Assembly: GCA_024230675.1 (NCBI GenBank) | Contig: JAAERE010000079.1 | Coordinates: 1-55,318 of the forward strand | Direction: 5' to 3' | DNA from: a bacterium | Lineage (GTDB): Bacteria; Zixibacteria; MSB-5A5; GN15; FEB-12 | Length of the DNA: 55,318 nt | Made by a program: the position numbers and the translations under genes | Notes under the pieces: model-generated | Seen by the model: the letters and a program-made list of their open reading frames with translations, nothing else | Told to the model about the DNA's origin: nothing | Databases searched by the model: none | Part shown: positions 33,652 through 48,752 of the stretch, in pieces | How positions within the stretch are numbered: position 1 is the first letter of the stretch | Layout: each line of letters begins with the position of its first letter

Positions 33652-34025
33652 GACGATTGTCCCCCCGAGAACGGGGATTCAAGTTCGTCCTGCTTGCGAT
33701 CGGCTCCCTTGAGCAGTTCCACCGATTCTTCGATCGGTCGGTTGCGCAGGATTGACACTTCTCCCTCAAGAGCCTTGATGCGTTTTCGCGAGGAATGAAC
33801 CAAGACCGACTGCTTGATGTACATGGAAACGAACAACAGCATCGACAGTACGGCCCCGACCACGAACGACCAGAAAACAACGGTTACCAGGGGAACATCG
33901 ACATAGTTCGGCAGCACCGGCTCAAGTTTGACATCGACCGTCTGGTCGGCTCCAAAGTTGTTATAGGCGAAGGCAACTACCAGCAGAATAAGCAGCAGCA
34001 CCAGAACAGCCCGTACAACCCACAT
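33648..34025 (-). CDS. LapA-like (DUF1049) inner-membrane protein
   Basis: 125 aa. Two TM helices (VLVLLLILLVVAFAY; VFWSFVVGAVLSMLLFV), then a coiled-coil tail SRKRIKALEGEVSILRN. Confidence 0.65.
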   Translation of the reverse strand: MWVVRAVLVLLLILLVVAFAYNNFGADQTVDVKLEPVLPNYVDVPLVTVVFWSFVVGAVLSMLLFVSMYIKQSVLVHSSRKRIKALEGEVSILRNRPIEESVELLKGADRKQDELESPFSGGQSS

Positions 34026-34065
34026 ACGACCTCCGTCAGTTTGGCGTTTTCAACCAGAGCCACAT

Positions 34066-34094
34066 ATTATATTGTCGCACGCTCGCCGGGGCAA
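34066..34094 (-). promoter_or_regulatory. Sigma-70-like promoter candidate for the lapA-lapB-SPOR-mutS-mutL-miaA string
   Basis: Minus strand reads TTGCCC (34094-34089), a 17-nt spacer, then TATAAT (34071-34066). Confidence 0.5.
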
Positions 34095-34095
34095 C

Positions 34096-34122
34096 AAAAA
34101 ACGCGGTGCCGACGGCGCCGGA
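34096..34122 (-). terminator. Possible rho-independent terminator after the 228-aa secreted protein gene
   Basis: An imperfect GC stem (CGC-C-GU / AC-C-GCG with loop CGGC) followed by UUUUUUGUUG on the minus strand. Confidence 0.4.
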
Positions 34123-34809
34123 TCAGCCGTCGCCCGAGGTTTCACCCCAATTGAGGCTCCGGACGGTCATTTCCACCTCGGCCAGAACCGTGGCTACGTA
34201 CGGCCATTCGCACATGACGTGGAACAGGTAGATATGGTCGCCGTGTTTGACCGCGCCGATAGCACCGCCATAGGAGCTGCGAACCAGCTTACCTCCCACG
34301 GACGAGGCGGAGGTGGACACGATCTGCCGGTACTTGACCTGCCCCTTCCACATAACTCCCGATTCACCCGCGATCTCCAGCCGGGACCTTCCCTTGGGGA
34401 CAACTTCGCCATCGTAAATGTCCGACGGCTGCAAAATCTCGAACTCTTTGACGATTTCCTTCTTCTGATTCGACTTGAAGCTTTCCGACGTCAGAGAGTC
34501 CAGAAATGCGTGCGCGCCCAGGCTGGTCGTATCCACGTAAACGACGATGCGCGGAATTTTAGTGTAGTCCGGAGCGTTCACGAAATCGGAAGGAATTCCG
34601 TAGTTCTTCTTCGTGATCGTCAGGCGAACATTGTCGTCCTTCTTATTGACGCGCGCCTTCCAATTTTCATGAATCGAGAGCGCAAAGCCGTAGCTGGCGT
34701 CGGTATAGACGCCGTCTTTCACTGCTCCGGCCTTGGGTTTCTTGCGCCGGGCGTCCGCCATCGGGGCGAGCATAAGACCGGCCAGAATAGTAATAACGAG
34801 TTTCTTCAT
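34123..34809 (-). CDS. Secreted protein of unknown function
   Basis: Start at the ATG at 34809, preceded by AGGAGG, gives MKKLVITILAGLMLAPMADA. I recognise no motifs. The track start at 34908 adds 33 non-signal residues. Confidence 0.6.
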   Translation of the reverse strand: MKKLVITILAGLMLAPMADARRKKPKAGAVKDGVYTDASYGFALSIHENWKARVNKKDDNVRLTITKKNYGIPSDFVNAPDYTKIPRIVVYVDTTSLGAHAFLDSLTSESFKSNQKKEIVKEFEILQPSDIYDGEVVPKGRSRLEIAGESGVMWKGQVKYRQIVSTSASSVGGKLVRSSYGGAIGAVKHGDHIYLFHVMCEWPYVATVLAEVEMTVRSLNWGETSGDG

Positions 34810-35024
34810 CACCATTTCCTCCTGCAGCAATACCCGTAAGTATCTACAACGATTAAGCCTTGTCCGGGCAATAGTCAAGGATTTAATGGACGAATCCGTC
34901 CGATGCACTTACTCATTGATACACAAGAGCTTTGGAACCGTTCCTGTAATCTCGGCGGCAGCGACAGAGACCTCCGCCGTAGGCCGTAATGTTATGTCGG
35001 CGAAAGAATTACGAAAGGCCCAAT

Positions 35025-35894
35025 TTACCCCTCAAAACCGATACGGTTGCGCGCCGAAGAGCGAATGTGATCCATCAAGGTGGAGAAGTGGAAGTCACCC
35101 AGCAGACGGTTCAGCTTGATTTCCAGCGTATCGGTTGACCCGTAGGTTCTGAATCGCTGTAGCATCGTCAGGCCGGTTATCGGAGGTGGCTGGGGATCGA
35201 TTTCCCACGGGTGGACGTAAACCATAGCCGGCCGGCCCTGGTCGTTCAGTTTGCGGATCATCCGGCGGGAATACCAGTACGGTGAGTGCCTAAGATATCC
35301 GCCGCCGCCCAGGGGAAGGTTCTGACCGAAAAGGCGGTGGGTTGAGGCCGGGACTTCATAGAGATACTTACCGCTCTCCAACCTCATTTTGAACAGTTCA
35401 CGAGGACCATCGGGCATGCCGTAAATGTCATGTTTGATGGGAAAGATAGAACTGTCGTACTCGAAGCCAAACTCCCCCAGGATTTCGAAGGCCCAGGTAA
35501 CGTCCTCGTTGATGGACCAACTGGGAGCCCGGTAGCCAAGCGGCCGAAAACCGGAAGTGTTCACTATAGCTTCAAGGGCCCGTTCGGTGTCCTCCCGAAA
35601 AACCTCCGGTTCGAGCTGGTCTACCCGGCGATGTCGATAACTGTGGCAGCCGATCTCGTGGCCGTGGTCGGCGATGCGGCGCATCAGGTCCGGGTGGCGC
35701 TCAGCACACCAGCCGACGATAAACCAGGTAGCCTGAACATCGTGGCGGCGAAACAGAGCCAGCAGGCGTTCGCAGTTTCGTTCCAGGGTAGTGGGCAGGC
35801 CGGGCCAGTCTTCGAATCTGATCCTGTCGGCCAGACTCTCGACCACAAACCATTCTTCGAGATCAACGGTGAGTACGTTCGATTGGCGTTTCAT
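35025..35894 (-). CDS. Polysaccharide deacetylase family protein with DUF3473-type C-terminus (PEP-CTERM/XrtA-locus subfamily-like)
   Basis: 289 aa. LTVDLEEWF, ATWFIVGWCAERHPDLMRRIADHGHEIGCHSYRH, YRAPSWS, GGGGYLRHSPY. Confidence 0.8.
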   Translation of the reverse strand: MKRQSNVLTVDLEEWFVVESLADRIRFEDWPGLPTTLERNCERLLALFRRHDVQATWFIVGWCAERHPDLMRRIADHGHEIGCHSYRHRRVDQLEPEVFREDTERALEAIVNTSGFRPLGYRAPSWSINEDVTWAFEILGEFGFEYDSSIFPIKHDIYGMPDGPRELFKMRLESGKYLYEVPASTHRLFGQNLPLGGGGYLRHSPYWYSRRMIRKLNDQGRPAMVYVHPWEIDPQPPPITGLTMLQRFRTYGSTDTLEIKLNRLLGDFHFSTLMDHIRSSARNRIGFEG

Positions 35895-35911
35895 GGTTCA
35901 GGGAGGGGTGG

Positions 35912-36718
35912 TTATTTGGGGATTCGGTTCTTCCGGGGTGAATCGGTCTCTTTTTCCGATTGGTCGGTCTTGGAAGCCCGCACGGCGCCGGGGTTGTTTC
36001 GATTGTCAATCGGTTTGCCGCTGTCGTGGCGCTGACTGTAATCGTAGTTGTAGTGGCTGTAGTCGTAGTAGTAAGGCAGGCTTCCCTTGACGTTGTTCAG
36101 CACCACACCAAGGAGGTTGATCTGGCTGGAAGACAGAATATCAGCGGCTCGCTGGGCCACTTCGCGCGCCGTCGATCCGGCCTTCACGATCAGAACCGCG
36201 CCGTCCATCTCCTGAGCCAGCAACATGGGATCCGAGACGGGAATGACCGGCGGAGTATCAACGAACACGAAATCATAATAGAATTTCAGTTCGTGGACCA
36301 GCCCCCCGATTATCCTTGAGTCGAACAGTTCCGTAGGGTGCGCCACGGCCTTGCCGGCGGTAATAATATCAAGATTGTCGAGCGAGGTTTTTTTGACGAC
36401 GCTTTTGACCTCATCGCCGTTATGTAGCACCTCGGACATTCCCTTGCCTCGCTCGCAGGCGAACAGTCGATGTACCGAGGGCCGTCTCAGATCACAGTCT
36501 ATCAACAGCGTCTTATGACCCTTGTAAGCAGCTGTGATGCTCATTAGCGAGGCCACGGTCGACTTGCCCTCGGAAGTAATGGCCGAAGTAAAGAGGATCG
36601 ATTTGAGGTCCGCCTCCTTCCCCTTTCTCTGAAACGTGTGCAGGAGGCGGCGAAACTCCGTGGCTACCGGAGACTCGAGCGAGTAATAGTCAATGAGCGG
36701 CATCGATGGACGAGCCAT
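35912..36718 (-). CDS. Stand-alone bacterial tyrosine (BY) kinase catalytic domain (CpsD/CapB / EpsG-like)
   Basis: 268 aa. Walker A SAITSEGKSTVA, A' LLIDCDLRRP, Walker B FVFVDTPPV, and a C-terminal Tyr cluster LPYYYDYSHYNYDYS. There is no transmembrane segment. Confidence 0.85.
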   Translation of the reverse strand: MARPSMPLIDYYSLESPVATEFRRLLHTFQRKGKEADLKSILFTSAITSEGKSTVASLMSITAAYKGHKTLLIDCDLRRPSVHRLFACERGKGMSEVLHNGDEVKSVVKKTSLDNLDIITAGKAVAHPTELFDSRIIGGLVHELKFYYDFVFVDTPPVIPVSDPMLLAQEMDGAVLIVKAGSTAREVAQRAADILSSSQINLLGVVLNNVKGSLPYYYDYSHYNYDYSQRHDSGKPIDNRNNPGAVRASKTDQSEKETDSPRKNRIPK

Positions 36719-36729
36719 ATGGAATTGTC

Positions 36730-37854
36730 CTATCTCTTCCCGGTTATTTTTCCGACCGCTTCGTCGATTACTCGACGAACCTGGTCAGACTGGTTCAGGG
36801 CTTCCGTCACACCCGGCAGAGAAGAATTCATCTCAGCCGTTTTGCGGAACTGCTCTACTCCCTTACGCCAGACTAGCCGGGAGTGTTCCAGATAACAGTG
36901 GGCCAATTCGGCCTGGAGGTCAACGTAAGTTGGATTGCGGCCCAGCTCCCCTTCCAAAAAACCGATGCGGTCAACCAGTGATCTTTCCGACACCAGACCC
37001 GGGGAGGTAACGAATCTCATGTAATAAGCCGAGAATTCCTTGCGCCGGCTTTCTTTGCGTGCATCTCTTATCTCCCGGAAGAGAATGAGCGCGCGGCCTC
37101 TATCGCCGGTCTTCAGCGCCTGCAGCCCGTCTTCAAAGTCACTTCTCTTCTTGAACTCAGGATAGATCAGCGAAGCCTTGTGCAAATAGCCGGTTATTCT
37201 CTCGACCGAGGGAGCAGCTCCTCCCGACGGTCCGGCGTTGATCGAAGCCAGGAGATGCGCCAACCCCAGATTAAGGTAGGCGTCGCCGTAATACATGTTG
37301 ACGCTTATCGCCTCCTGGAACTCGCCAATGGCCGCTTCAGGATTGTTGTCGGCCAGATAGGCCTCACCAAGGCTGTTGCGATAATCAGCGTAACCTGGTC
37401 GAGCCGCAACCGCGCGGCGGGCGGCCTCGACCGCTTCGTCAAAACGCCCCAGGGCGAGGTAGGTCATTCCCAAATAGTTGGCAGACTGATGGTGTCCGGC
37501 TCTCAACTGCTCCGCCTGTACAAAAAGGCGGGCGGCCTCAGTGAAAAATCGTTTATAGAAAAAGGCCGTGCCGAGCTGGTAGGTCGTGTCCGGGTCGCCC
37601 TGCTGCACGACCTCGCTGTAAGTCTGTAGCAGCGTCTCAACTTCCTTCTTTTTCTCCCCGTGAGTGAGCTTAACCAGCGAAAGGACTTCCTGCGGGTCTG
37701 ATTCCGCAGGATGGGGACAGCTGACGGTCTCGGCCTGGACGCCGTCAACAAAGATGGTAGTGGAGACTGAGCCTACCGAAGGATCGTTGGTCGTGTGGAT
37801 GAGATACTCGCGGTCGTCTTCTCTAAGCTTGCTGTTAATACGATAGGTTTCCAT
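36730..37854 (-). CDS. Cytoplasmic TPR-repeat protein
   Basis: I prefer the ATG at 37854 (METYRINSK...), because the track start at 37863 is a TTG. Several TPR units (ANYLGMTYLALGRFDEAVEAARRAVAARPGYADYRNSLGEAYL...). No signal peptide or TM segment is evident. Confidence 0.75.
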   Translation of the reverse strand: METYRINSKLREDDREYLIHTTNDPSVGSVSTTIFVDGVQAETVSCPHPAESDPQEVLSLVKLTHGEKKKEVETLLQTYSEVVQQGDPDTTYQLGTAFFYKRFFTEAARLFVQAEQLRAGHHQSANYLGMTYLALGRFDEAVEAARRAVAARPGYADYRNSLGEAYLADNNPEAAIGEFQEAISVNMYYGDAYLNLGLAHLLASINAGPSGGAAPSVERITGYLHKASLIYPEFKKRSDFEDGLQALKTGDRGRALILFREIRDARKESRRKEFSAYYMRFVTSPGLVSERSLVDRIGFLEGELGRNPTYVDLQAELAHCYLEHSRLVWRKGVEQFRKTAEMNSSLPGVTEALNQSDQVRRVIDEAVGKITGKR

Positions 37855-37945
37855 ACGCCTCAAACAGTTTCCCGATTGTTACTTCATAACGTCCCTGACT
37901 CCTCGATAGTTCTCTATCGGGCCCGGGAAAAGCACAGCGGGAGGC

Positions 37946-38917
37946 CTACAATTCCCGGATGAGGAAGACGGTAGTGGTAAGCACTCCCAGGACCGTGGCC
38001 ACGCCGGTTAAGCCACCTGAGAAGAAACCGGACCGCTGAGTCGGGACGACAAACATATCTTCCTTCTGCATTATGTATCGGACCGGACGTCCGGTTTGTG
38101 AGTATTTCTCGAGGTCAAAACGTACCGTCTGAGCAAACCGGCCGTCTTTCAGGATCAACTGAGTCTTTCTCAGATCGGCGTCAGCGGTCGGACCGCCGGC
38201 CAGGGCCAGCGCCTCAATAACGTCGATACCCTCTTCGTATTTAATCGGCCCCGGTGAGGAAACCGCCCCGATAACATATATCAGATTCTTCTTCTCGGTG
38301 CTCTGCCCCACCTCGGCCGCCAGCACCTGCCCGGGTGTCCTCGGAATCTCAATCGTGTCCTGTCGGCGGACTTTTGGCAGATCGGAGAGCCTGCCTTCGG
38401 CTATCGCCTGGCTGATGTTTACGACCTCAATCTCTCCCGCCTGATCGCCGCCGCGAATAATCGTCACCCGGCTGAGATCGCCCAGTTCACCAACGCCGCC
38501 GGCCTCGTTGATCAGGGTCCACAGGTCGGGAATTTCCTCGAAAGCCAGCTTACCGGGAGAATTGACCTGGCCGATCACGAATACATGATTGTGATAATAT
38601 CCCGAGACCCTCACAGTGGCCTGAGAGATATTCTCTTTGAGGCGCGACATAAGGCGCACAATATCGGTCTGCAACTCCTCGGTCGTCTTCCCGGCGGCCT
38701 GGATCTGACCGATGATGTCCAGCGTGATCCTGCCGTCAAGGCCCACCGTGACCTGAACGTTCAGGCCCGGATCCTGCCAGAAGCTGACGTCAATGACATC
38801 CTCCACACCGATACGATATTCTGCCGCCATCAATTGACCGACAGCCAGTCCGGATAGCAGAAGCGCTACCGCCGCGACCTTAACAATCCCTGTTAACCAC
38901 AGACGTTTCATGTCCAT
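37946..38917 (-). CDS. Polysaccharide export protein (Wza/EpsE-like: Poly_export + SLBB domains, C-terminal helix)
   Basis: 323 aa. Signal sequence, then YRIGVEDVIDVSFWQDP...VTVGLDGRITLDIIGQIQAAGKTTEEL, an SLBB-like IYVIGAVSSPGPIKY, and a C-terminal hydrophobic helix GVATVLGVLTTTVFLI. Confidence 0.85.
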   Translation of the reverse strand: MDMKRLWLTGIVKVAAVALLLSGLAVGQLMAAEYRIGVEDVIDVSFWQDPGLNVQVTVGLDGRITLDIIGQIQAAGKTTEELQTDIVRLMSRLKENISQATVRVSGYYHNHVFVIGQVNSPGKLAFEEIPDLWTLINEAGGVGELGDLSRVTIIRGGDQAGEIEVVNISQAIAEGRLSDLPKVRRQDTIEIPRTPGQVLAAEVGQSTEKKNLIYVIGAVSSPGPIKYEEGIDVIEALALAGGPTADADLRKTQLILKDGRFAQTVRFDLEKYSQTGRPVRYIMQKEDMFVVPTQRSGFFSGGLTGVATVLGVLTTTVFLIREL

Positions 38918-38978
38918 ATATCTCCCAGAAATGGATCTACTATAGAAATCGGCAATTTTCCTTTTAGTTAGAGCCTAA

Positions 38979-39007
38979 AATATAGACCCGGTGTTGACGA
39001 GTGTAAA
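38979..39007 (-). promoter_or_regulatory. Sigma-70-like promoter candidate for the polysaccharide-export operon
   Basis: Minus strand reads TTTACA (39007-39002), a 17-nt spacer, then TATATT (38984-38979). Confidence 0.45.
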
Positions 39008-39064
39008 GCTCAAAAAAAGTCTGGATTGGGTTTCCTTTTAAGGCGCTGGTGAGGAACAGGAGCG

Positions 39065-40687
39065 TCAGGCAACAATGTACTTGTTGCGGCCGGCCTCTTT
39101 TGCTTTCAGCAGGGCCATATCGGCGGCGAATATGAGCTGTTCGGAGTTTTCTCCATGGTCGGGAAAGACCGCCCCCCCCTGGGAAATAGTGAAAACGAGG
39201 TCTGTGGTAATCTGATCGAATCTGAACTTGGAACCAACAATTTTCCGCTGCAGGCGGTCCATAAACTGGCGGCAGGTCGCCCGGTCGGATTCCGGCATAA
39301 CCACGCAGAACTCGTCGCCCCCGTAGCGCGCAATTACATCGATAGACCGAATCGACAGTCTCAGGACTTCGCCAATACGTTTGATGACAGCATCGCCGGC
39401 CTGGTGGCCGTAACGATCGTTGACGCTCTTCAATTCATCGAGATCGAAGATAATCAGCCCCAGCGAACGCTGGTATCGTTTGGCGCGATCGATCTCTTCC
39501 TCCAGACGTCTCAAGAAATAGCGGCGGTTGGCCAGACCCGTCAGATTGTCCGTGAACGACAGCTCTTCGACCTTCTCAAACGAGACCGCATTCTCCATCA
39601 GGTGGCCGGCGCTAGTCTCGTGTCGGCGCAGTTGCATTTGGATCTCGGCGGGCTTTCGACTATCGTTCCAGGTCATTATTCCGGCGCGGCCCTCGGTCAG
39701 GGGGAACTTGGAGAGATACATAAGCCCGGCTTCCTGCAGTTTCTCGCCCCAGGCGGCCGCCTCCGCCCCGTGATCTTTCAACTGCCCCACGGATATCCAC
39801 CCGTTGACCGACAAGCGCCCGACCAGATCGGCGAATTTCTCATGGCGAGGCGGTTCGAACTGACGGGTCGTGCCCGCTTCGACTATCCGCAGAGGATCGG
39901 ATGCACATTTGGGCTCGTACAGGAAAGCCATGCTCTCCAGACCTATGTCTTTCTGCATCTCTTCCACAATCTCTCCAACGAGAGTCTCGGAATTGCGGTG
40001 TCGAACCAGCTTTAGCACGCCCATCGCGGGTGCCTTACTCTCGACCGCACGCGCCAAGGCCTCGTTCTCTGCCTCCGCGACGCGGTCCTGCAGTTTCCCG
40101 AATTTGCTCTCGTGCCAACGAATGTGATAGGCCGCCGACAGGGATTGCGCCAGGGCCGCCACAAGGAGCTTGAACGAAGGCGTCCGCGTTTCAATAGAAC
40201 TTCTGATGAAATACAGGCCGTACAGGTGATCCCGCCAGAATATTGGGAAATACAGATCGCATTTCCATTCGTGCAGTTTGCGACAGAGATTTTCCGGCAG
40301 ATAGCTCTCCAGATCGGAGACTTCCTCGGGGAAAACCTGACCTCTCAATCGATTGACCAGATCGTCCGAGTATCGGGTGCGGAGGTCCTTCCGGTCAAAT
40401 CGACTAATGCCGTGGAAATAGTTCAGATCAAGAGACCGCCGCCGCTTCCGCAAAAAGAGAATGATCTCACAGCCACAGGCGTGTTTGAGAAGGTCGGATA
40501 CTTTGCCAGCCACGTCCTGAATCGAGCCTTCAAGACAGTTGGTGCGCAAGAAATCGGAGAATTCTTCCAGATCCATCCTGGCTATTGCGGCCAGACGACG
40601 CCTCTCTGACCTGATTCGGATCAGCAGGATCGTGGCAAGAATCACCACAAGAACGATGAGAAATATGACCAGCACGGTCTGCGTCAT
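39065..40687 (-). CDS. Membrane-anchored diguanylate cyclase (TM - GAF-like sensory region - GGDEF with I-site)
   Basis: 540 aa. N-terminal TM VLVIFLIVLVVILATILLI. GGDEF domain LTGLANRRYF...IIFDLDELKSVNDRYGHQAGD...RSIDVIARYGGDEFCVVM, with the RxxD motif five residues before GGDEF. Confidence 0.9.
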   Translation of the reverse strand: MTQTVLVIFLIVLVVILATILLIRIRSERRRLAAIARMDLEEFSDFLRTNCLEGSIQDVAGKVSDLLKHACGCEIILFLRKRRRSLDLNYFHGISRFDRKDLRTRYSDDLVNRLRGQVFPEEVSDLESYLPENLCRKLHEWKCDLYFPIFWRDHLYGLYFIRSSIETRTPSFKLLVAALAQSLSAAYHIRWHESKFGKLQDRVAEAENEALARAVESKAPAMGVLKLVRHRNSETLVGEIVEEMQKDIGLESMAFLYEPKCASDPLRIVEAGTTRQFEPPRHEKFADLVGRLSVNGWISVGQLKDHGAEAAAWGEKLQEAGLMYLSKFPLTEGRAGIMTWNDSRKPAEIQMQLRRHETSAGHLMENAVSFEKVEELSFTDNLTGLANRRYFLRRLEEEIDRAKRYQRSLGLIIFDLDELKSVNDRYGHQAGDAVIKRIGEVLRLSIRSIDVIARYGGDEFCVVMPESDRATCRQFMDRLQRKIVGSKFRFDQITTDLVFTISQGGAVFPDHGENSEQLIFAADMALLKAKEAGRNKYIVA

Positions 40688-40725
40688 GACCGGACCTATT
40701 GTATAACGGACTCTTACTTAATTGA

Positions 40726-40753
40726 ATAATAACCAATTACAGGGAATTGTCAA
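40726..40753 (-). promoter_or_regulatory. Sigma-70-like promoter candidate for the GGDEF gene
   Basis: Minus strand reads TTGACA (40753-40748), a 16-nt spacer, then TATTAT (40731-40726). Confidence 0.45.
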
Positions 40754-40769
40754 ATAAAACAGGCGGCGA

Positions 40770-41450
40770 TCAAGTGCGCCCCCAAGCGTAGCGGAACCGT
40801 GATCTCTTGCGAAGCAGGTTATTTCTTTTCAGGATGAAGAAGATTCTCCACCAACCCGCGGGCTGCTCCGAACTACGATTTTTGAGCTCCCGCCTGATCT
40901 CGGAGATGGTTACAAAAGGATCGTTCTTGACCATTTGCAGAGCCACCAACTCGGGGTCTTTCTCCACCTCCGCCGAAGGAGCTATATACGCCTCGGTACG
41001 GGCCACACGTCCGTCATCGGCCGCGGCGGCGACCTCTTCCACCACTGTCAGTTTTGTCGGGGCCCCTTTTTTTTTTCCGCCGGTCGGCGCCTGGCCCCTT
41101 CCGAACCGCTCCACGGCATCGTCCACCGAGGTGAAGATCTGAAGCACCTTATCAAACTCCAGCAGTTCGAAAATCTCGTGAACATCCGGTACCATACCGG
41201 CCAACTTGATATCCCCCGCGTTGGAGCGAACGTCCTTGATATGGGAGATAAAAATCCCCCAGCCCGCGGAAGAGATATAGTCGACGCCGGCTAAATCAAT
41301 AACGATCTTGTAGCGCCCCCGACGCAGCAGAGAGTCAATAACCTGCTCGAGTTCGTTGGCCGTCAACGTATCCACGACTCCGTCAACGCGAATCTCGGAG
41401 ACTTCACGGTCGTGGCCGCTCTCAGATAAAGAAATACTAATGTTTTCCAT
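40770..41450 (-). CDS. STAS-domain anti-sigma-factor antagonist-like protein with ~110-aa C-terminal extension
   Basis: 226 aa. STAS core IRVDGVVDTLTANELEQVI...IVIDLAGVDYISSAGWGIF...LAGMVPDVHEIFELLEFDKV, with a conserved phosphorylatable Ser in DYISSAG. After it come a Lys/Gly linker and a basic tail (ISEIRRELKN...LKRNNLLRKRSRFRY). Confidence 0.8.
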   Translation of the reverse strand: MENISISLSESGHDREVSEIRVDGVVDTLTANELEQVIDSLLRRGRYKIVIDLAGVDYISSAGWGIFISHIKDVRSNAGDIKLAGMVPDVHEIFELLEFDKVLQIFTSVDDAVERFGRGQAPTGGKKKGAPTKLTVVEEVAAAADDGRVARTEAYIAPSAEVEKDPELVALQMVKNDPFVTISEIRRELKNRSSEQPAGWWRIFFILKRNNLLRKRSRFRYAWGRT

Positions 41451-41526
41451 GCTCTTACCGGGTCATCCGTAGCTGTACACTTCTTTCCAATTGCCCAAAA
41501 ATCCGGCTAACATCAACTCCGGGCAA

Positions 41527-43584
41527 CTAAAAACTTCCTTCCTCGCCGGTTCCGGACTCCGGCAGGGTTCGGCTGTCGAGGGTTTGTTCGTCCAGTTCCT
41601 CGTCGTCCTCACGGTCCTCTTTAACGGCCACTGTTCGTCCCACCACAAAGGTTATGTCATCCCGTTGCGCCGCAAAACCGGAAAAGCTGTCGACCCTGTC
41701 AATAATCTCTTTGGACAGAGCCTTGAGTTCCGATTTGCGGTCGGCCTCCTGCCACCCCTGCAGGAAGTCAATCATACGCTCCAGGCCGTACTGATTGCCC
41801 TCGCGATCGACGGCCTCGGTAATTCCGTCGGTATAAATGAAGAACAGGTCGCCCTCGTCGAGTTGCAGGTCAAAGCTCTCCAGGGAATCGCCGAAGTCCT
41901 TTGCCAGGGTCACCGGCACGCCAAGGGGCATACCGGAGGGATTCAGCTTCACAACTTTGCGCGTGGCGGCCTTGTACAGCAACAGCGGGTTGTGTCCGGC
42001 CGAGACAAAGTCAAGTTTACGGGTCGAGGAGTCGAATATCGCCATGAGCACCGTAACAAACATACCGCGCGGCATGTTTCCCGAGAGGTAATCGTTGACC
42101 GACAGTAACGTATCCCGGGCCGAGGCAGAGCCCTGCGCAAAGATCCTGATCACCGTTCGCAGCATCGACATAACCAGCGAGGCGGGCACGCCTTTGCCGG
42201 AGACGTCCGCGACAACCAGACAGCAGCGACTGCCACCGATATCGAAAATGTCATATAGGTCTCCACCTATCATGGAGGCGGCGCGGTAAAAGGCGTCGAT
42301 CTCAAGACCCGGCAGATGTGGCAGGCGCACCGGGAGGAGGGTCTTTTGAATCTGCGAGGCGACCTCAATTTCCTTGGCCATTCTCTCGCGTTCGATCGCG
42401 CTTTCGCGGTCGCGCCTGAGACGCGTCATCATCTCGTTGAGGGCGCTCGAAATCTCGAAAAACTCGGCGGCGCCTTCAAGAGGCAGCTCGCTCTCAAGAT
42501 CGCCCGAAGAAAACCGTCGGACCCTACGGGTGATCGCCACGATCGGCTTCACGAAATAATTAGACAGTAGGTAGATACCCACAATGCCAATCACCAGCAG
42601 CAAGCCTGTGAACTGAAGGATTTTCTCTTTGGCGAGCTGTAAACGCTGCTGAACCAGTTCGGAAGAATATGTCAGATAGGCTGAGCCCAGCTCCCGGTTT
42701 CCGGCGCGTATAGGCAAAATCAGGTAGTTGGTTTCTCGGTTCTCTATCCGCCAGCGTTGCGGCGCAGATTGGAAGCCCGGGTCCGCCTCCGGGGGATATT
42801 GATAGGGTCTCCGGATATTGTGGATATCGTCCGAGTGGGCCAGAATGACGTTCGAGGAGTCGGTTAGTACGATGCGCTTGAGCACCGGGTTGGAAGTATA
42901 ATAGCTAATGACGAGTTCGTCGAACTCCACGTCACTGCGGCGGTTGATGATATACAGGCCGGCCTGTTCAGCCAGTGTTTTGCCGAGGGCGGCCACGGTT
43001 CCGTCGAGATAATTGTATACCTCGCGCGAAGATCGATCGTTGATGAAGTAGTAAGCCGTCCCGATAAGAATGCTCACGATAACCAGCGTCCAGAACGAGA
43101 ACTTGGCGCGTAACGTAAACATACGGCGCAACAGCGGCGGCGTGGCTGACCCGGCCTCCGCCCCCAGCCATTTGGTCATCCTCAGTTCGTTCTGCCCGGC
43201 CGAAGACACATATTCCACCGAATCCATGATCTTCTGGATCATGTAGAAGCCAAGACCGCCGCGTCGTCCGGACTCCACCAGCCGGTTCAGGTCGAGCTTG
43301 CCGGTACCTTCCGGCCGGAACGAACGTCCGGTATCTATCAACGAGAAACTGATAAGCTTTTTGTAGGTGACGATCCGCAGTCGGATGCTTCCCTTTTCAT
43401 AAAGGTAAGCGTGACGAATGATATTCGTGGCGCCTTCTTCGATAGCCAGGAGAACGGCCGATACGTACTTGCGATTCATACCGGCAGCGGTACAGACCTC
43501 GCGCACGATACGTTGGATGCTGTCGAGGTACTTCTCTTCCGCCTGAAACTCGGCGTTTATCTCCTTTGTTGGACGACGGAACAT
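41527..43584 (-). CDS. Fusion protein: RsbW/SpoIIAB-like Ser kinase (HATPase_c) - TM - extracytoplasmic region - TM - HAMP - PP2C/SpoIIE phosphatase
   Basis: 685 aa. Kinase motifs EEGATNIIRHAY, IDTGRSF, GGLGFYMIQKIMD. TM segments FWTLVIVSILIGTAYYFI and LLLVIGIVGIYLLSNYF. PP2C motifs GGDLYDIF, VVADVSGKGVPAS, IYTDGITEA, QRDDITFVV. Confidence 0.8.
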   Translation of the reverse strand: MFRRPTKEINAEFQAEEKYLDSIQRIVREVCTAAGMNRKYVSAVLLAIEEGATNIIRHAYLYEKGSIRLRIVTYKKLISFSLIDTGRSFRPEGTGKLDLNRLVESGRRGGLGFYMIQKIMDSVEYVSSAGQNELRMTKWLGAEAGSATPPLLRRMFTLRAKFSFWTLVIVSILIGTAYYFINDRSSREVYNYLDGTVAALGKTLAEQAGLYIINRRSDVEFDELVISYYTSNPVLKRIVLTDSSNVILAHSDDIHNIRRPYQYPPEADPGFQSAPQRWRIENRETNYLILPIRAGNRELGSAYLTYSSELVQQRLQLAKEKILQFTGLLLVIGIVGIYLLSNYFVKPIVAITRRVRRFSSGDLESELPLEGAAEFFEISSALNEMMTRLRRDRESAIERERMAKEIEVASQIQKTLLPVRLPHLPGLEIDAFYRAASMIGGDLYDIFDIGGSRCCLVVADVSGKGVPASLVMSMLRTVIRIFAQGSASARDTLLSVNDYLSGNMPRGMFVTVLMAIFDSSTRKLDFVSAGHNPLLLYKAATRKVVKLNPSGMPLGVPVTLAKDFGDSLESFDLQLDEGDLFFIYTDGITEAVDREGNQYGLERMIDFLQGWQEADRKSELKALSKEIIDRVDSFSGFAAQRDDITFVVGRTVAVKEDREDDEELDEQTLDSRTLPESGTGEEGSF

Positions 43585-43633
43585 AACGGAAAGTACTCCC
43601 GGAGAGAGAGAAAACCACTAAAAAACGAAGTAG

Positions 43634-45457
43634 CTAGTTGTCGGAGTCCTGGGCCCCCATGCGGAGCCGGGCCTGCTCGATATTGTTCAAAGTGTTGGGG
43701 TTGTTGGGGTATTTTGCCAGCACTTTTTGCCAGGCCTCTATGGCCTGCTGATATTCTTTGTTGCGCATGAACCTCAGACCGTCGAGATAGAGGCTCCATA
43801 TCTCAGCATCGTTCTGGAGGTCCTCAAGCGTCGCCGTCCGAGTCTGCGCTTCCTGAATCCTGTTGAGATAGTCGAGCGCCGTAGCCTCGTTCGGATTGAC
43901 GTCGAGAATTGCTCGGAACTGGGTCTTGGCAGCCTCATAGCGACCCTTCTCAAACATCTCTATGCCCAGCCTGATTTTCTCGGGCAGCCCCATGGTGGCC
44001 AAAACCTGCTGCTTGGATTGACTGGCACCTTCGTTGTCCGGATCGACATCCAGAATACGATTGTACGCTTCGATCGCCTCAACGAGACGCCCGGCCTCCC
44101 ACGCCTGCCGGGCGGTCTCGAAGTTGGCTGCTATTTCGTCCGACATGGACTGTCGTATCTGACGCTGAAGCTGCTGCGCCCGGTAATTGTCGGGATCGAT
44201 GTCAAAGATCAGTTCCAGAAGGTCGAGCGACGCCCGGTAGTGGCGCTGCGCGTACAGTTGGCCGGCCTGAGTTAAGAAGCCGCCCAGCGTCTGATTGAGC
44301 TCTTCCTGAGCCTCGAACAACAGCGTTTCCTGTTCTCGCTGTTTCCGTCTGGCCTCCTCGATGGCCGCTATCGATCCGATTATCTCCCGGTTGTCGGGCT
44401 GGTACTTCAGCGCTTCGCTGAAGAAGTAAGTCGCCGAGTCAAGGTGGAAGCGATGCAGATACAGATTGCCCTGCTCCATAAGCGCGGCGAACTGTTTTTC
44501 CTCCTCCGTGGGCTCCGGAGGCAGTGCCGCTATTTCCTTCAGACGTATCTGCTCCGAGACCGAATTCCCTATGAGGAATGACAGTGAGAAGTGGTGGATA
44601 TCGCTAACATAGTCGACGAGTTTGTAGGCATAGTCCACCTTGAGCCGTCGGTATTTAAGCCCCGCTCCAAACGACACATTGTCTCGGTCGTACCCCAGTC
44701 GCAGAGCAAAGGACCTGTGAAAATCTATTTCGGCACCGGCCCGCACTTTGAGATCGCGGTCTTCAGTCTTCTCAAGGTCGACAGCCGCGGTAAGCTGGAC
44801 GTACTCGGACACTGCCAGATCGGACAATGACAGTCCACCGACAACCGACACCGGCGTGCGTTCCGATGTGGCCTGTAGTTGAAGCTCCGGGGCACGAATG
44901 TCTCTAGCCATGACGCCCAAAGCGAGATGGCGATGTATTTTAGCGGTCAATCCCAGATCGAGGCCTATACCAAAATCAGTATGACCCGCCAGAGACTGAC
45001 GCAAGATCTTCAGACTCGTGCCAATCGCAAAGCGGTTCCCCAGCGACCGGCCGTAGGAGAGCAGCGACTGGGAGTAGGCGTAATGGAAAGCCCCACGGTC
45101 CAAATAGTCCACACGTCGGGTGATGTCCTCGGTGCCCAGGCGCATTATGCCAATGCCCAGGCCGTGGTGGTCTCCGATCGGATAGACCCACGAGACAACG
45201 TCGTAAATGCTGCCTTCCAGCAGAACAGTGTGCATGGCAGCGAATTCCTGAAACTCAAGAGAGGAGAGCCCCGACGGGTTGTAATAGAGCGATGTGGCGT
45301 CGTCGGCCATCGACACGAAACCGCCGCCCATGCCCAGCGGACGGGCACCGGCGCCGATAGCGAACGGCGTCTCCCTTCCAGCGTCTCCCGCCTGGGCCGT
45401 GCTGATACAGACCGACAAAAGAAGCACCAGGGCGATGTATTTCGATACTCTCATCAT
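43634..45457 (-). CDS. Outer-membrane beta-barrel (PorV/PorQ/UPF0164-like) fused to a ~300-aa C-terminal TPR region
   Basis: Start at the ATG at 45457, or at 45454, overlapping the stop codon of the upstream gene (ATGA). Signal peptide MMRVSKYIALVLLLSVCISTAQA. N-terminal motif GAGARPLGMGGGFVSMADDATSLYYNPSGLS. The C-terminal half consists of TPR units (ALKYQPDN, IFDIDPDN, ILDVDPDN, ILDVNPNE, LAKYPNNP). Confidence 0.65.
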   Translation of the reverse strand: MMRVSKYIALVLLLSVCISTAQAGDAGRETPFAIGAGARPLGMGGGFVSMADDATSLYYNPSGLSSLEFQEFAAMHTVLLEGSIYDVVSWVYPIGDHHGLGIGIMRLGTEDITRRVDYLDRGAFHYAYSQSLLSYGRSLGNRFAIGTSLKILRQSLAGHTDFGIGLDLGLTAKIHRHLALGVMARDIRAPELQLQATSERTPVSVVGGLSLSDLAVSEYVQLTAAVDLEKTEDRDLKVRAGAEIDFHRSFALRLGYDRDNVSFGAGLKYRRLKVDYAYKLVDYVSDIHHFSLSFLIGNSVSEQIRLKEIAALPPEPTEEEKQFAALMEQGNLYLHRFHLDSATYFFSEALKYQPDNREIIGSIAAIEEARRKQREQETLLFEAQEELNQTLGGFLTQAGQLYAQRHYRASLDLLELIFDIDPDNYRAQQLQRQIRQSMSDEIAANFETARQAWEAGRLVEAIEAYNRILDVDPDNEGASQSKQQVLATMGLPEKIRLGIEMFEKGRYEAAKTQFRAILDVNPNEATALDYLNRIQEAQTRTATLEDLQNDAEIWSLYLDGLRFMRNKEYQQAIEAWQKVLAKYPNNPNTLNNIEQARLRMGAQDSDN

Positions 45458-48400
45458 TTGAGCACCGCCACTTTCAATACCGCCTGGGCACCTGTCCACT
45501 CGTCGGTCAGAACCGCCAGGTAAACGCCGTTGAGGACCATCTGCCCTCTATCGTTGCGCCCATCCCATTCAAGTGTCCGAGAACCGGTGAGACCCTCAGC
45601 GGGAAGCGTCTTGCGATACACGATCTCTCCGGAAAGGGTTAGAATCCTGAATACGATCGTGCCCGCTTCCGCCTGAAAGAACTGGAACTCGGCCGGACGA
45701 GAAAGCGGGTTGAACGGGTTGTCTCGAATAATGAACGACCCCACAAGATCGGCAGCTACCGTAGTAAAAACCTCGCTGACCACCTCTTCCTCACCGCTCT
45801 GGCTGCTGATCTCAACTTGCTGCCCCCCTATGGGACCGGAGGCAAAAACGGCCTTTATGTCTTCCATCATCAACGAGACGCCAAAGACGCCGCCAGCATT
45901 GGCAAGTATCCTGGAGCGCAGCACCAACTCAACGGGTGAAGTGCCGTTGATGATGTAGTCTTCGAATGTGAGATTGAGACGATTACCACCGGCAGTGGCC
46001 CGGGTGACTTCGCGTAAACCGTCGAACAATCCGGTACTCCCCACCTCCAGCACAGACCTCACGCTGACGGGCTGTCCTTCGGCATCCTTAAGGGCAAACG
46101 ACATCGATTGCATCGCGACGGCTGTTACCGAGGACGTGCCTTTGTTGTCGAGAACCAGGCGAATCAGATCGCGGGTTTTGCCGGGGAAAACAACGTTTGG
46201 AAGAACCGGTTCGGCTGAGACGAGCAGCTCCAAATCCTCGGAAAGCACGGCCAGATTGGTCTCAAACTCGGTCTCACCGATTTGCGCGGGTAGACCCGTG
46301 TTTATGTCCAACGGGATTTCTGTTAGCCCGAAGTTGATCGTTAGGGAAGTGTCGAAGGATGGCGCCAGGAACTCAATACCGGCCGGCTGGCCAACCTCCA
46401 CCGACAGGACGAGCGGGTCGGGGACGCCCAGATCCAGACCGTTGGTGGTGAGAGTGAATTCACCGTCGGAGGTCTCGGCCTCACCGCTGTTAACGATGGT
46501 CAGGATCAGATCAAAGTCATCGTTGACCGTCACATAGCCATCGCTGGCCCCGCGCAACAGAACGGACACCGTCAGGAGCGCCGGTTCCTGGATCATAGCC
46601 TGAGCTATGTTGTCGATAGGCGGCAGTTGATTTACCCCCAGGCTGGTTATGTCTACGCGGAAGATCTCGGAGGCATTGGCCACCGGAGAGGCCTGCACGA
46701 CAATGAAAGAATCTATAACGCTCTCGCCGGGCACGCCGGGGATAGTGTGGTCGGACTCAAAGACGGAAGCGCCGTCCGATACCAGGCGGATATTGAAAGG
46801 TGGTTGGTCTGTCGTTGACAGATTGGCGATCCGGAAAGAAATCCTGAATTCCTGATTCGTATTTACGTTTGGGCTATTGGGCGCTACTACAGAGACTTCG
46901 GTTATCTGCACAGTTGGTAGTTCTTCGACCACCACAGCCTGGCTGTCGAAGTCGGTCGTGAAGGTCAGCCAATTGGCTGAACCCTCCCTATGGAACGTGA
47001 CTGTGGCCGCAACTTCCAGGGAGTCACCCAGATGACTGGGGGGAATGAACACCTGGCCCGTCGTCACATGATTGAGTCCGGGGATTAGTGAATCGCCTTC
47101 CACCACCAGACTGGCGGCCGCAGAAAAACTCCCGCCACTGATCAGGAACCAACTCAGGTCGTAGTCCAAGTGCACCGGAGACGACCCGCCCAGCGAGAAG
47201 TCGAATTCGAAGGTTGATTCCTGGCCAGAGGACACCTCAACCGGACCGAAACTGCCCGGCACATACCCGAGAGCGGGAGCGAGTAACAGGAACAGGGAAT
47301 CGGTCGGGGATGGGTCCAGACAAAATACGCTGCCTCCCGACGACAATCGAAAGTCCAGTCTGACGTCGAACCAACCCTCGGTCAGACCAAGACTGGAATC
47401 GACCATGGCTTCCAGATCGGCATAGCTTATTATCGAGTCTTCAAACGCCGCGTATTTCGGCGAGCCATCGTATATAGTTGCGATTACGGAGTCGGAAGCG
47501 CTCACCAGATGAACCGCCAGGCTGGTGCTGTCGATCGGGCCGGCAAAACCGCCGGTGGACACATCGAAGGACATATCGAACGAAACCCCGACGAACACAG
47601 ACTCGGGCACCAGGGAACCCTCGACAAGGCCGAAGTCAGCCGAGGGCAGGATTGTGACCGGCGTTCGCACCGTATCGGTGACCGCCAGCAGGCTGTCGGC
47701 GGGTTGGTAGGCGCTTTCCAATACCAGGACCAGCGTATCTTCCCCCGCGCTCAGGCCGGTTGTTGGCAGATCAATCTCCAGCGTATCCTGCATACCGCTG
47801 GTCTTGGGAGGGAAAAAGACTTTCACCGAGCCGCCGCCTGAAGCAAAAAACGCCTTCAATGTAGGCTCGGACTCGGCCAAAAGATCCCCGCCGTTTGATA
47901 CAGGTACCTTGATGGTAGCCGGCAGATCAGAGTAAACGCTTTCAACGGGATCGCCAAGGCGGTCGAAAACCGACAATATCTCGTAGCCGCTGTAGGAGAC
48001 CAGCGTCGACAGCGAAGAAACGCCTGAATTGGATGCGGTTATGGCGACCGTCCCGGAGGAGCCCTCATAAACCACGCCCAGCGGCAAAAAGTCTACTACT
48101 CCTGCCGCAAAGAGACTGGAGTCGCTAATGACATCCGGCGCTAGCAGCCCGGAGTCCGGGGCCAATTGGATAGGATCCCCGGCAAAATCATAGTCGGTCA
48201 CCAAAGCGGAGTTTTCATCGAGCAACAACACTCGAGCCGTACCGTGCAGAGGATAGCCGACTACCTGTTCGGATGCGATCTCAAGAACTAGTCGATCCAA
48301 AGCCTCAGCCTCGAACACCGCGGCGCCGGAGTCTGCGGCTGCTTGAGAAGTAGTCGCGTGACCGGATTCGCGGGACTGGGCGAAGGTTGTTTGAGACGTG

Positions 48401-48489
48401 ACAAAAAGCGTCAGCGTCAGCCAGAGGATTGCGAGCAGGATATGTTGCGCTCTTTTCACCAAATCAACTTTGTTTAGCGTGCAAAACAT
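45454..48489 (-). CDS. Large acidic Ser-rich secreted surface protein (tandem Ig/CARDB-like beta-sandwich regions) with T9SS-type / FlgD-Ig-like C-terminal domain
   Basis: 1011 aa. Signal peptide ...LTLTLFVTSQTTFAQS. C-terminus IRDNPFNPLSRPAEFQFF...IVFRILTLSGEIVYRK...LEWDGRNDRGQMVLNGVYLAVLT...LKVAVLK. I recognise no catalytic motif. Confidence 0.7.
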   Translation of the reverse strand: MFCTLNKVDLVKRAQHILLAILWLTLTLFVTSQTTFAQSRESGHATTSQAAADSGAAVFEAEALDRLVLEIASEQVVGYPLHGTARVLLLDENSALVTDYDFAGDPIQLAPDSGLLAPDVISDSSLFAAGVVDFLPLGVVYEGSSGTVAITASNSGVSSLSTLVSYSGYEILSVFDRLGDPVESVYSDLPATIKVPVSNGGDLLAESEPTLKAFFASGGGSVKVFFPPKTSGMQDTLEIDLPTTGLSAGEDTLVLVLESAYQPADSLLAVTDTVRTPVTILPSADFGLVEGSLVPESVFVGVSFDMSFDVSTGGFAGPIDSTSLAVHLVSASDSVIATIYDGSPKYAAFEDSIISYADLEAMVDSSLGLTEGWFDVRLDFRLSSGGSVFCLDPSPTDSLFLLLAPALGYVPGSFGPVEVSSGQESTFEFDFSLGGSSPVHLDYDLSWFLISGGSFSAAASLVVEGDSLIPGLNHVTTGQVFIPPSHLGDSLEVAATVTFHREGSANWLTFTTDFDSQAVVVEELPTVQITEVSVVAPNSPNVNTNQEFRISFRIANLSTTDQPPFNIRLVSDGASVFESDHTIPGVPGESVIDSFIVVQASPVANASEIFRVDITSLGVNQLPPIDNIAQAMIQEPALLTVSVLLRGASDGYVTVNDDFDLILTIVNSGEAETSDGEFTLTTNGLDLGVPDPLVLSVEVGQPAGIEFLAPSFDTSLTINFGLTEIPLDINTGLPAQIGETEFETNLAVLSEDLELLVSAEPVLPNVVFPGKTRDLIRLVLDNKGTSSVTAVAMQSMSFALKDAEGQPVSVRSVLEVGSTGLFDGLREVTRATAGGNRLNLTFEDYIINGTSPVELVLRSRILANAGGVFGVSLMMEDIKAVFASGPIGGQQVEISSQSGEEEVVSEVFTTVAADLVGSFIIRDNPFNPLSRPAEFQFFQAEAGTIVFRILTLSGEIVYRKTLPAEGLTGSRTLEWDGRNDRGQMVLNGVYLAVLTDEWTGAQAVLKVAVLK

Positions 48490-48752
48490 TAGAACCGGTA
48501 TCTAAGGATGTGAGCAAACTCTATGCCCCAACCCATTGCGCCACAGATAAATAGCGGAAAAATATTCCCTTAGTTATCCACATCTAGTCGCACGCGTAAG
48601 AGCTTTGATGTTAATGAGTTATGGTCACTTTTTGAACAGCATCTTGATTTAGGAGAAGCCAGGATAGGATCGGTGCAACCCGCGAGGGCAGCGGTAATCT
48701 CCCGCGATGCAGTCGCTTGCACCATAAGCGCAACCTGACGGCATGCTAGTTG

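Follow-up and report, generated by a model that had tools for sequence, protein, structure and literature searches.

Do a secreted surface protein, a phosphorylation switch, a cyclic di-GMP (c-di-GMP) synthase and polysaccharide export genes that stand side by side on a Zixibacteria chromosome form one regulatory module? The question is raised by ten consecutive minus-strand genes (34123..48489) in a stretch of 55,318 nucleotides, contig JAAERE010000079.1 of assembly GCA_024230675.1, which is referred to as a whole as the window. A preliminary description had interpreted these genes as an integrated and undescribed system for biofilm or adhesion decisions, with the short gaps over 48489-40770 taken as consistent with one transcript. 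Comparison with related loci indicated a layered locus, in which an old four-gene core that also occurs in other phyla is extended in Zixibacteria by a diguanylate cyclase and a polysaccharide export block. The integrated reading was upheld to the extent that gene order was conserved and the catalytic and phospho-acceptor residues were invariant, whereas the single transcript, the membership of the last gene and a complete export block were not.

All ten open reading frames (ORFs), designated g1 to g10 in the direction of transcription, were found at the coordinates previously given, and the domain assignments agreed with searches against Pfam and NCBIfam. They encode a surface protein with a C-terminal domain of the type IX secretion system (T9SS) type (g1), an outer-membrane barrel (g2), a kinase/phosphatase (g3), a STAS protein (g4), a GGDEF cyclase (g5), a Wza-like exporter (g6), a TPR protein (g7), a bacterial tyrosine kinase (BY-kinase) (g8), a deacetylase (g9) and a secreted protein (g10). 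The short gaps reported at the start of the locus were also as described, with g1 and g2 overlapping and with 49 nt between g2 and g3 and 76 nt between g3 and g4, followed by gaps of 82 nt (g4-g5), 147 nt (g5-g6), 82 nt (g6-g7), 11 nt (g7-g8), 17 nt (g8-g9) and 116 nt (g9-g10). The common orientation of the genes, which had been offered as evidence for a module, carries no weight. The minus-strand run extends unbroken from 17772 to 55276 and comprises at least 30 genes, with housekeeping functions (PheT, RNase Y, MutS, MutL) mixed with envelope functions, and because this strand bias covers the whole region including housekeeping genes, co-directionality is uninformative for the locus.

For analysis of gene order, 80 loci from species-representative genomes were fetched via an alignment of g3, seven further Zixibacteria loci were obtained by exact-protein look-ups, and all window proteins were mapped onto the fetched loci. 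Conservation of gene order among relatives, which had been proposed as a check, was observed in 16 of 16 Zixibacteria-type loci wherever the sequence extends: g2-g3-g4-g5 were contiguous, and g5 abutted the g6-g9 block, in all 16 loci with sequence there. Homologues of g3 with 58-89% full-length identity carried the names Zixibacteria or GN15, and g4 and g5 each had more than 100 full-length cluster representatives from Zixibacteria. The cluster was still intact in loci in which g3 identity had fallen to 35-43% and the flanking genes were different (L005-L008, L029 and L043), and g1-g9 were kept together where the upstream flank was SMC/FtsY (L082) or where PurD followed g9 (L087). In L029 and L043 the export block g6-g9 was inverted yet still adjacent. 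A block that remains adjacent when inverted, together with changed flanks, therefore identifies g1-g9 as a conserved cluster and the export block as a separable unit within it. In the window's own clade, FolD/YmdB upstream and g10, LapA, LapB, SPOR and MutS downstream were equally syntenic. Some deeper Zixibacteria loci contained additional genes, namely a ParA/BcsQ-like ATPase gene between g3 and g4, which is missing from the window, a Wzz-type determinant (TIGR03007-like) between g6 and g7 and, in two loci, a priming sugar transferase gene after g8.

The order g1-g2-g3-STAS gene also persisted outside Zixibacteria, with g3 28-34% identical, in KSB1, Calditrichota, Latescibacterota, Krumholzibacteriota, Eisenbacteria, FCPU426 and metagenome-assembled genomes whose label was missing or odd. 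Where g3 was full-length and 2 kb or more of sequence was available upstream (35 loci), a g2 gene lay directly before g3 in 33 and a STAS gene lay downstream in 28. The reciprocal test from g2 gave a corresponding result, since for three of four distant g2-family representatives (24-27% identity) the very next gene was of the g3 type and the one after it encoded a STAS protein. In these other phyla g3 was longer (945-1468 amino acids), its PP2C domain being followed by HTH_23/28/29-type modules, by as many as three additional STAS domains or by TPRs, and a ParA-like ATPase and a g7-type TPR protein often accompanied the core. In Latescibacterota, Krumholzibacteriota and FCPU426, the gene between g3 (or the ParA-like ATPase gene) and the STAS gene encodes a TPR protein (371-396 amino acids) to which g7 aligned end to end. 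The association of g7 with the switch is therefore old, and the export genes appear to have been inserted around g7 in Zixibacteria. Gene content and order thus indicate a layered locus composed of an old core and a Zixibacterial addition, the latter consisting of the transmembrane (TM)-GAF-GAF-GGDEF cyclase and the Wza/Wzz/BY-kinase/deacetylase block.

Two further conserved genes were seen after the core in Latescibacterota- and Krumholzibacteriota-type loci (L012 17534-21610; L044; L038; L013). The first encodes a membrane protein of about 720 amino acids without a family match, and the second encodes a protein of about 580 amino acids, which in L012, the locus checked for it, has lamin-tail domains and a weak, sub-threshold FlgD_ig-type C-terminal domain.

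The switch at the center of the core is encoded by g3 and g4. The g3 protein (41527..43584, minus strand) combines an RsbW-like serine kinase (residues 1-145; HATPase_c_2 at 13-138, 82 bits), a TM helix, a Cache-like domain (residues ~181-320), a second TM helix, a HAMP domain and a PP2C phosphatase (residues 430-650; SpoIIE at 452-650, 152 bits). The N-box and G-box residues of the kinase (E49, N54, D84, G86 and G106-G112) and the metal-binding aspartates of the PP2C domain (D442, D460, D586 and D642/D643) were invariant among homologues. The periplasmic segment of ~140 amino acids between the two TM helices, for which sCache_3_2 was recorded in homologues, was the least conserved part of the protein across phyla (mean column identity 0.30 versus 0.64 for PP2C), a pattern compatible with ligands that diverge or, alternatively, with a changing partner with which the domain co-evolves. 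Relatives of g3 in the PDB included Rv1364c of Mycobacterium tuberculosis (3ke6, the best sequence match), SiaA, RsbW and SpoIIE. No match to a Response_reg (receiver, REC) domain was found in g3.

The g4 protein (40770..41450, minus strand) was predicted to consist of a STAS domain (residues 1-117), a disordered linker (119-161), a three-helix bundle (166-209) resembling a helix-turn-helix (HTH) and a basic tail. Its STAS fold is SpoIIAA/RsbV-like (TM-score up to 0.9, normalised to target), with the phospho-acceptor Ser61 in the sequence DYISSAGWG; S60/S61 were invariant in 30 homologues and the motif DLxGVDYISSAGWGIFIS was essentially invariant across phyla. The tail region (residues ~116-226; 40770-41105, minus strand) gave matches to HTH_21 and HTH_Tnp, both sub-threshold, and some Zixibacteria encode the tail in a small ORF of its own, apart from the STAS domain (L001 3033-3800; L084 12569-12805). 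By eye, the g4 tails of KSB1-, Calditrichota- and Eisenbacteria-type loci resemble the second HTH-like module that ends the long g3 forms (L088, L089 and L091), a resemblance confined to these long forms and not significant in BLAST of the g4 tail against the long-g3 C-terminus. Three hallmarks of a partner switch, the STAS phospho-serine, the GHKL serine kinase and the PP2C phosphatase, were all present; the fourth, a cognate sigma factor gene, was found neither in the window nor in the annotated related loci, and such a target may be encoded elsewhere.

Upstream of the switch, g1 (45454..48489, minus strand) encodes a secreted protein of 1011 amino acids that carries a signal peptide and, at its C-terminus, a domain of the FlgD_ig/T9SS type. 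The preliminary description had named it an adhesin. No adhesin domain was found in g1, which is at most a putative adhesin. The C-terminal domain matched FlgD_ig at 28.2 bits (cut-off 27) and did not match TIGR04183, and comparison with PDB sequences returned a marginal FlgD match and nothing further. The motif NPFNP...WDG...GVY...K of g1 also occurs in a TIGR04183-positive cargo encoded in the same window at 19140-22067, and the C-terminal motif NPFNP...WDGxN...GVY...KvAVvK was common to every gene upstream of a g2 homologue. With orthologue identities of 24-48%, g1 is the fastest-evolving member of the cluster. The second cargo (19140-22067, minus strand) is a protein of 975 amino acids with a beta-propeller and BACON-like repeats, and its Por_Secre_tail scored above the cut-off (TIGR04183, 38.8 bits versus a cut-off of 23).

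The adjacent g2 (43634..45457, minus strand) encodes a PorV/PorQ-family outer-membrane barrel with a C-terminal, periplasmic TPR domain. Its ORF spans 43634-45499, and translation probably begins at the ATG at 45457. This codon and the g1 stop codon overlap in the sequence ATGA, an arrangement that is present in the window and in relatives and by which g1 would be translationally coupled to g2. The protein scored 112.1 bits against the PorV/PorQ family model NF033709 (cut-off 90), fell below the cut-off of each of the PorV, PorQ and PorV2 equivalog models, and matched the sequence of the solved PorV structure weakly. The barrel-plus-TPR family comprised 203 representative clusters at E<=1e-30, and most of the matches listed were ~600-680 amino acids long and aligned end to end. 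Genes for the core T9SS machinery (SprA/Sov, PorKLMN and PorU) were not found within the 55-kb window.

The first gene of the Zixibacterial addition, g5 (39065..40687, minus strand), encodes a diguanylate cyclase predicted to start with an N-terminal TM helix, to continue through two GAF-like domains and a coiled coil and to end in a GGDEF domain. The GGDEF active site and the RxxD I-site are intact (sequence RSIDVIARYGGDEF), R447, D450 and G456-F460 were invariant in 32 homologues, and the best PDB matches were phytochrome-type and GAF-type diguanylate cyclases.

The export block begins with g6 (37946..38917, minus strand), which encodes a protein of the Wza or outer-membrane polysaccharide export (OPX) type with Poly_export, two SLBB domains and a C-terminal hydrophobic helix. 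It is followed by g7 (36730..37863, minus strand), whose cytoplasmic product combines TPR repeats with a small N-terminal domain; this N-terminal domain was considered as a PilZ domain and rejected on inspection because the RxxxR/DxSxxG spacing is too short. The g8 protein (35912..36718, minus strand) is a stand-alone BY-kinase with a Walker A motif and a conserved C-terminal tyrosine cluster, YYYDYSHYNYDY, and scored 153 bits against eps_fam (cut-off 108). The g9 protein (35025..35894, minus strand) is an XrtA-system-type deacetylase with Polysacc_deac_1 and DUF3473 that exceeded the cut-off of TIGR03006 (321.6 bits versus 276.2). The g6 and g8 proteins stayed under the XrtA-specific thresholds (TIGR03027, 116 bits versus 180; TIGR03018, 128 bits versus 231), and neither an XrtA exosortase nor a PEP-CTERM protein was found among the window ORFs scanned. 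No gene for a glycosyltransferase, flippase, polymerase, Wzz or exosortase was found among the genes of the whole window.

The absence of a Wzz-type co-polymerase from the window, in the presence of OPX (g6) and the BY-kinase (g8), distinguishes it from ten related loci in which Wzz sits between g6 and g7 (for example L002 15676-17166, L084 15678-17168 and L086 12804-14297; fragmented in L085). The corresponding g6-g7 gap of the window is 37864-37945, and the gene is likewise missing from L004 and L081-L083, a distribution that points to loss of Wzz in these five loci. The g8 BY-kinase of the window is therefore without its usual membrane partner in cis. As for g10 (34123..34908, minus strand), which encodes a secreted protein of no family, with a signal peptide if the start is at 34809, family and other sequence searches returned no match anywhere. 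The gene had been counted as part of the module; it travels only with the window's own clade, beside LapA/LapB/SPOR/MutS, in L087 the gene after g9 is PurD, and g10 lies outside the conserved cluster.

The proposal of one transcript was not supported by the promoter elements, as conserved footprints predict three transcription units with two sigma types. The predicted units are g1-g4, g5 and g6-g9, with g10 separate. Upstream of g1, a sigma-54-type -24/-12 motif, GGCATAGAGTTTGCT (48513..48527, minus strand), ends 24 nt before the g1 ATG. The exact pattern GGCAT-N4-W-TTGCT has a single occurrence within the window; of 81 loci, 5 contained it, four of these at the orthologous site upstream of g1 (L002 4361-4375, L003 2621-2635, L004 3744-3758 and L081 5043-5057), where the surrounding intergenic DNA was otherwise not alignable by eye among relatives. 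Matches to the sigma-54 consensus were not enriched across the window (12 observed versus 19.6 expected), and the only meaningful sigma-54 site is the positionally conserved one upstream of g1. Deeper Zixibacteria (L005, L006 and L008) have TTGACA-N17-TATAAT at this position instead, so that the promoter class before g1 appears to have been swapped within the phylum. No inverted repeats were found upstream of g1. Elsewhere in the window, an NtrC-family sigma-54 response regulator is encoded at 12476-13825 (minus strand), followed by an ORF of no family (11419-12456) and a DUF4384/PEGA protein (9759-11396); this regulator is a possible partner of the g1 promoter.

The promoter-like hexamers that had been noticed before g5 (11/12 matches) and g6 (10/12) proved to be real. 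In the g4-g5 gap, a sigma-70-type element TTGACA-16-TATTAT (40726..40753, minus strand) is matched by TTGACA...TATATT at the same position in L004, L081, L082 and L083. The g5-g6 gap contains the sigma-70-type element cTTTACA-17-TATATT (38979..39007, minus strand), for which the conserved pattern can be written as CTTTAC-N17-TCTATATT. A search of all loci compared with the regular expression CTTTAC-N15-19-TNTATATT returned only the orthologous g5-g6 site, in seven Zixibacteria loci. An invariant TGCCGAT in the g6 leader (38948..38954, minus strand), ~25 nt downstream of the conserved -10 box, recurred at orthologous sites in L001, L002 and L081-L084 and may be an operator; no pairs were predicted for a conserved RNA fold in this leader. 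A terminator-like hairpin with an 8-bp stem (35012..35034, minus strand) lies at the g9 stop codon.

Taken together, the gene content, the integrity of the domains, the conserved order and the promoter footprints, all directly observed, led us to propose that the locus is a layered, phylum-conserved envelope-regulation cluster of three transcription units that passes a surface cue through a switch to c-di-GMP, export and surface display, a proposal to which we give about equal credence for and against. Each protein-protein step and the direction of control are what we infer. Unit 1, with its sigma-54-type promoter, would be the ancient cassette g1-g2-g3-g4, in which g2 may serve as a dedicated PorV-like barrel for g1 with its TPR domain facing the periplasm. 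An envelope or surface cue would act on the Cache-like domain of g3 and, via HAMP, shift the kinase/phosphatase ratio, as the REC domain does in SypE (PMC10120452). Both activities of g3 would act on Ser61 of g4, their ratio would set the phosphorylation state of g4, and this state would decide which partner g4 engages. Unit 2, with a sigma-70-type promoter, would supply the membrane-anchored cyclase g5, whose gene Zixibacteria place directly after the STAS gene. By analogy, g5 is likely to be one partner of g4 in this phylum: one form of g4 would bind and activate g5, as HsbA does with HsbD (PMC6482189), and/or g4 may work via its HTH-like tail and g7. Unit 3, with a sigma-70-type promoter, would comprise g6-g9 and encode export and modification, the steps at the end of a Wzx/Wzy-type exopolysaccharide pathway, with g7 embedded in the block. 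The c-di-GMP produced may act on export or on transcription, for example via a sigma-54 enhancer-binding protein, and the outcome would be changed c-di-GMP, polysaccharide export and surface-protein display.

Several observations weigh against this proposal. Three promoters of two sigma types make independent regulation possible, and the synteny of the flanks in the window's own clade leaves only the deeper loci to discriminate between a cluster and a stably inherited region. Neither PilZ nor another obvious c-di-GMP receptor was found among the window ORFs, in which the previously unannotated ORFs encoded the prepilin peptidase, the DUF4384/PEGA protein and PurE. No Rfam family, c-di-GMP riboswitch included, was present in the window at gathering score, and no Rfam match, again including this riboswitch, was obtained at E<=1 over 33900-48800. 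The g5 cyclase, with GAF sensor domains of its own, could work alone, and the export block is incomplete, with no Wzz, glycosyltransferase or flippase/polymerase gene in the window. Finally, the genes for GGDEF, Wza, BY-kinase and deacetylase proteins are absent from the non-Zixibacteria core loci. Since the core is found with neither GGDEF nor export genes in six or more phyla besides Zixibacteria, c-di-GMP cannot be its ancestral output and is at most a lineage-specific one.

Two other readings concern the core. In one, the core would be an undescribed envelope-signalling device, widespread in candidate phyla related to the Fibrobacterota-Chlorobiota-Bacteroidota (FCB) group, in which the state of the giant g1 protein would be read via the g2 TPR arm by g3 and converted to STAS phosphorylation. 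Its outputs would differ by lineage: Zixibacteria would use c-di-GMP together with exopolysaccharide export, and other lineages HTH, additional STAS or TPR modules. The conserved and often overlapping g1-g2-g3 order suggests that the switch reads cargo/barrel status, and we advance this reading tentatively, as possible rather than probable. In the other, the output is transcriptional: the g3 kinase would sequester a sigma factor encoded elsewhere, or the HTH-like tail of g4 would act on DNA or RNA polymerase, and g5 would be an independent GAF-regulated enzyme. The absence of GGDEF from the core in all non-Zixibacteria phyla speaks for this reading; so do the conserved basic three-helix module of the g4 tail with its weak HTH_21/HTH_Tnp similarity, the HTH_23/28/29/32 matches in long g3 forms together with the motif shared by eye with g4 tails of the KSB1, Calditrichota and Eisenbacteria types, and the classical role of RsbW-type kinases as anti-sigma factors. 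However, no sigma factor gene lies in or beside the loci examined, the HTH assignments of the g4 tail are below family thresholds, and g5 directly follows g4 in every Zixibacteria locus, and we consider a transcriptional output unlikely.

It is also conceivable, though we think it improbable enough to be doubted, that the genes are juxtaposed with no flow of signal between them, so that three independent units, namely a T9SS cargo plus barrel, a cyclase beside a generic partner switch and what is left of a polysaccharide locus, merely share a stably inherited region. The co-directional 37-kb stretch with its housekeeping genes, the FolD/YmdB and LapA/LapB/SPOR/MutS flanks that are just as syntenic in the window's clade, the three separate conserved promoters and the incomplete export block all agree with such an account. 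It explains less well that at greater divergence the flanks change and g1-g9 remain together (L005-L008, L029, L043, L082 and L087), that the export block stays adjacent even when inverted, and that the g1-g2-g3-g4 core is kept across several phyla, reciprocally from the g2 side. A polymer export function for g2, comparable to the porins BcsC, PgaA and PelB and making the core cassette a polysaccharide exporter, was considered because its barrel-plus-TPR architecture recalls synthase-dependent exopolysaccharide porins and because a ParA/BcsQ-like ATPase gene accompanies the core in many phyla. This is very hard to reconcile with the PorV/PorQ score of g2 above cut-off and its weak match to the solved PorV, with a domain order that is the reverse of that in BcsC and PgaA, with the gene for a T9SS-type C-terminal domain that always precedes g2, often overlapping it, and with the lack of any synthase gene in the core loci, and we regard it as highly improbable.

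The layered envelope-regulation cluster can also be compared with characterized systems, and here the claim of an undescribed system proved overstated, as SypE/SypA, HsbR/HsbA/HsbD and HenR/All4160 are known partner switches that govern polysaccharide or a diguanylate cyclase. The present switch operates in the manner of SypE/SypA and HsbR/HsbA/HsbD and belongs to neither: a REC domain is missing, and the arrangement of its domains is not that of HsbR. SypE (kinase-REC-PP2C) and SypA lie in the syp polysaccharide locus of Vibrio fischeri (PMC10120452, PMC8256260). Like g3, SypE is one polypeptide with an N-terminal RsbW-type serine kinase, a C-terminal PP2C domain and a signal-input module between them, and like g4, SypA is a single STAS substrate phosphorylated on a conserved serine, encoded within or beside a polysaccharide locus and without a known sigma target. 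The central module differs, being TM-Cache-TM-HAMP in g3, which implies extracytoplasmic sensing, and REC in SypE. The Zixibacteria locus differs further in the HTH-like tail of g4, the GGDEF gene that follows, the linked T9SS-type cargo and PorV-like barrel, and the phylum, with sequence similarity at the domain level only.

In the HptB-HsbR-HsbA-HsbD pathway of Pseudomonas aeruginosa, phosphorylated HsbA binds and activates the cyclase HsbD, promoting biofilm formation (PMC6482189). HsbR resembles g3 as a bifunctional phosphatase/kinase that controls a STAS protein, but its domains follow the order REC-PP2C-kinase and a phosphorelay provides its input; FlgM and RpoS are further targets of HsbA, and the Hsb genes have no surface-protein or export linkage (PMC6482189). 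For g5, what the genes show is its position next to g4 in every Zixibacteria-type locus with sequence there. The SiaABCD system of P. aeruginosa is similar in that its cyclase is activated by a small protein whose phosphorylation state is set by a membrane HAMP-PP2C phosphatase and a kinase (PMC7647112, PMC8457831). The scores of g3 against SiaA (57.7 bits, cut-off 700) and of g5 against SiaD (150 bits, cut-off 290) were far below the cut-offs, and the SiaB and SiaC models matched none of the locus proteins, so that the locus is not a SiaABCD system. SiaC is not known as a STAS protein; its phosphorylation is on threonine, and a separate protein serves as the Sia kinase. Rv1364c is, like g3, a fusion of phosphatase and kinase, presumably cytoplasmic and also equipped with PAS and STAS domains.

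In HenR/All4160 of Anabaena, STAS phosphorylation controls exopolysaccharide without a sigma factor, through an exopolysaccharide enzyme as target (bioRxiv 10.64898/2026.04.08.717354); in contrast to g3, the kinases and phosphatase are separate proteins, and there is no cyclase and no T9SS-type linkage. Chlamydial RsbU, a membrane-spanning protein with a HAMP linker and PP2C (PMC4552016), resembles the C-terminal two thirds of g3, whereas the kinase of Chlamydia is separate and targets sigma-66. For the export block, g6 and g8, together with Wzz in relatives, correspond to the OPX/polysaccharide co-polymerase/BY-kinase set of Wza-Wzc loci. Similarity to XrtA/PEP-CTERM loci above cut-off was restricted to g9, and the window has no exosortase, PEP-CTERM protein, glycosyltransferase or flippase. 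The pairing of g2 with a T9SS-type cargo gene resembles PorV-cargo pairs, to which g2 adds the C-terminal TPR domain; we know of no such domain in canonical PorV.

Among the papers searched, none joined T9SS/PorV with SpoIIE and an antagonist and none joined Zixibacteria with type IX secretion, and no description of the four-gene core was found. The cluster is accordingly a variant of known biofilm switches and not a wholly new system, and the multi-phylum core is the part most worth attention.

The locus is flanked on the same strand by PheT, ZapA, RNase Y, YmdB and FolD upstream and by LapA-like, LapB-like, SPOR, MutS, MutL, MiaA, MltD-like and SppA proteins and another T9SS cargo downstream. 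The remainder of the window encodes housekeeping proteins, HrcA-GrpE-DnaK-DnaJ, PurD/PurE and the sigma-54 response regulator, with a type IV prepilin peptidase (A24_N_bact and Peptidase_A24; 1803-2585, minus strand) at the far end.

Zixibacteria, KSB1, Calditrichota, Latescibacterota and related phyla occur in large numbers in sediments, cultures of them are absent or scarce, and to our knowledge almost nothing is known about how Zixibacteria and their neighbours decide on attachment and matrix production. The cluster offers conserved candidates for such an attachment decision, comprising a sensor, a phospho-switch, a second-messenger enzyme, an export apparatus and a surface protein, and it provides an example of an older cassette to which one phylum apparently added c-di-GMP signalling. 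Should the connection of the cargo/barrel pair with the switch be functional, it would represent a new class of partner-switch input, the status of a surface protein, and would add an extra regulatory layer to type IX-like secretion outside Bacteroidota.

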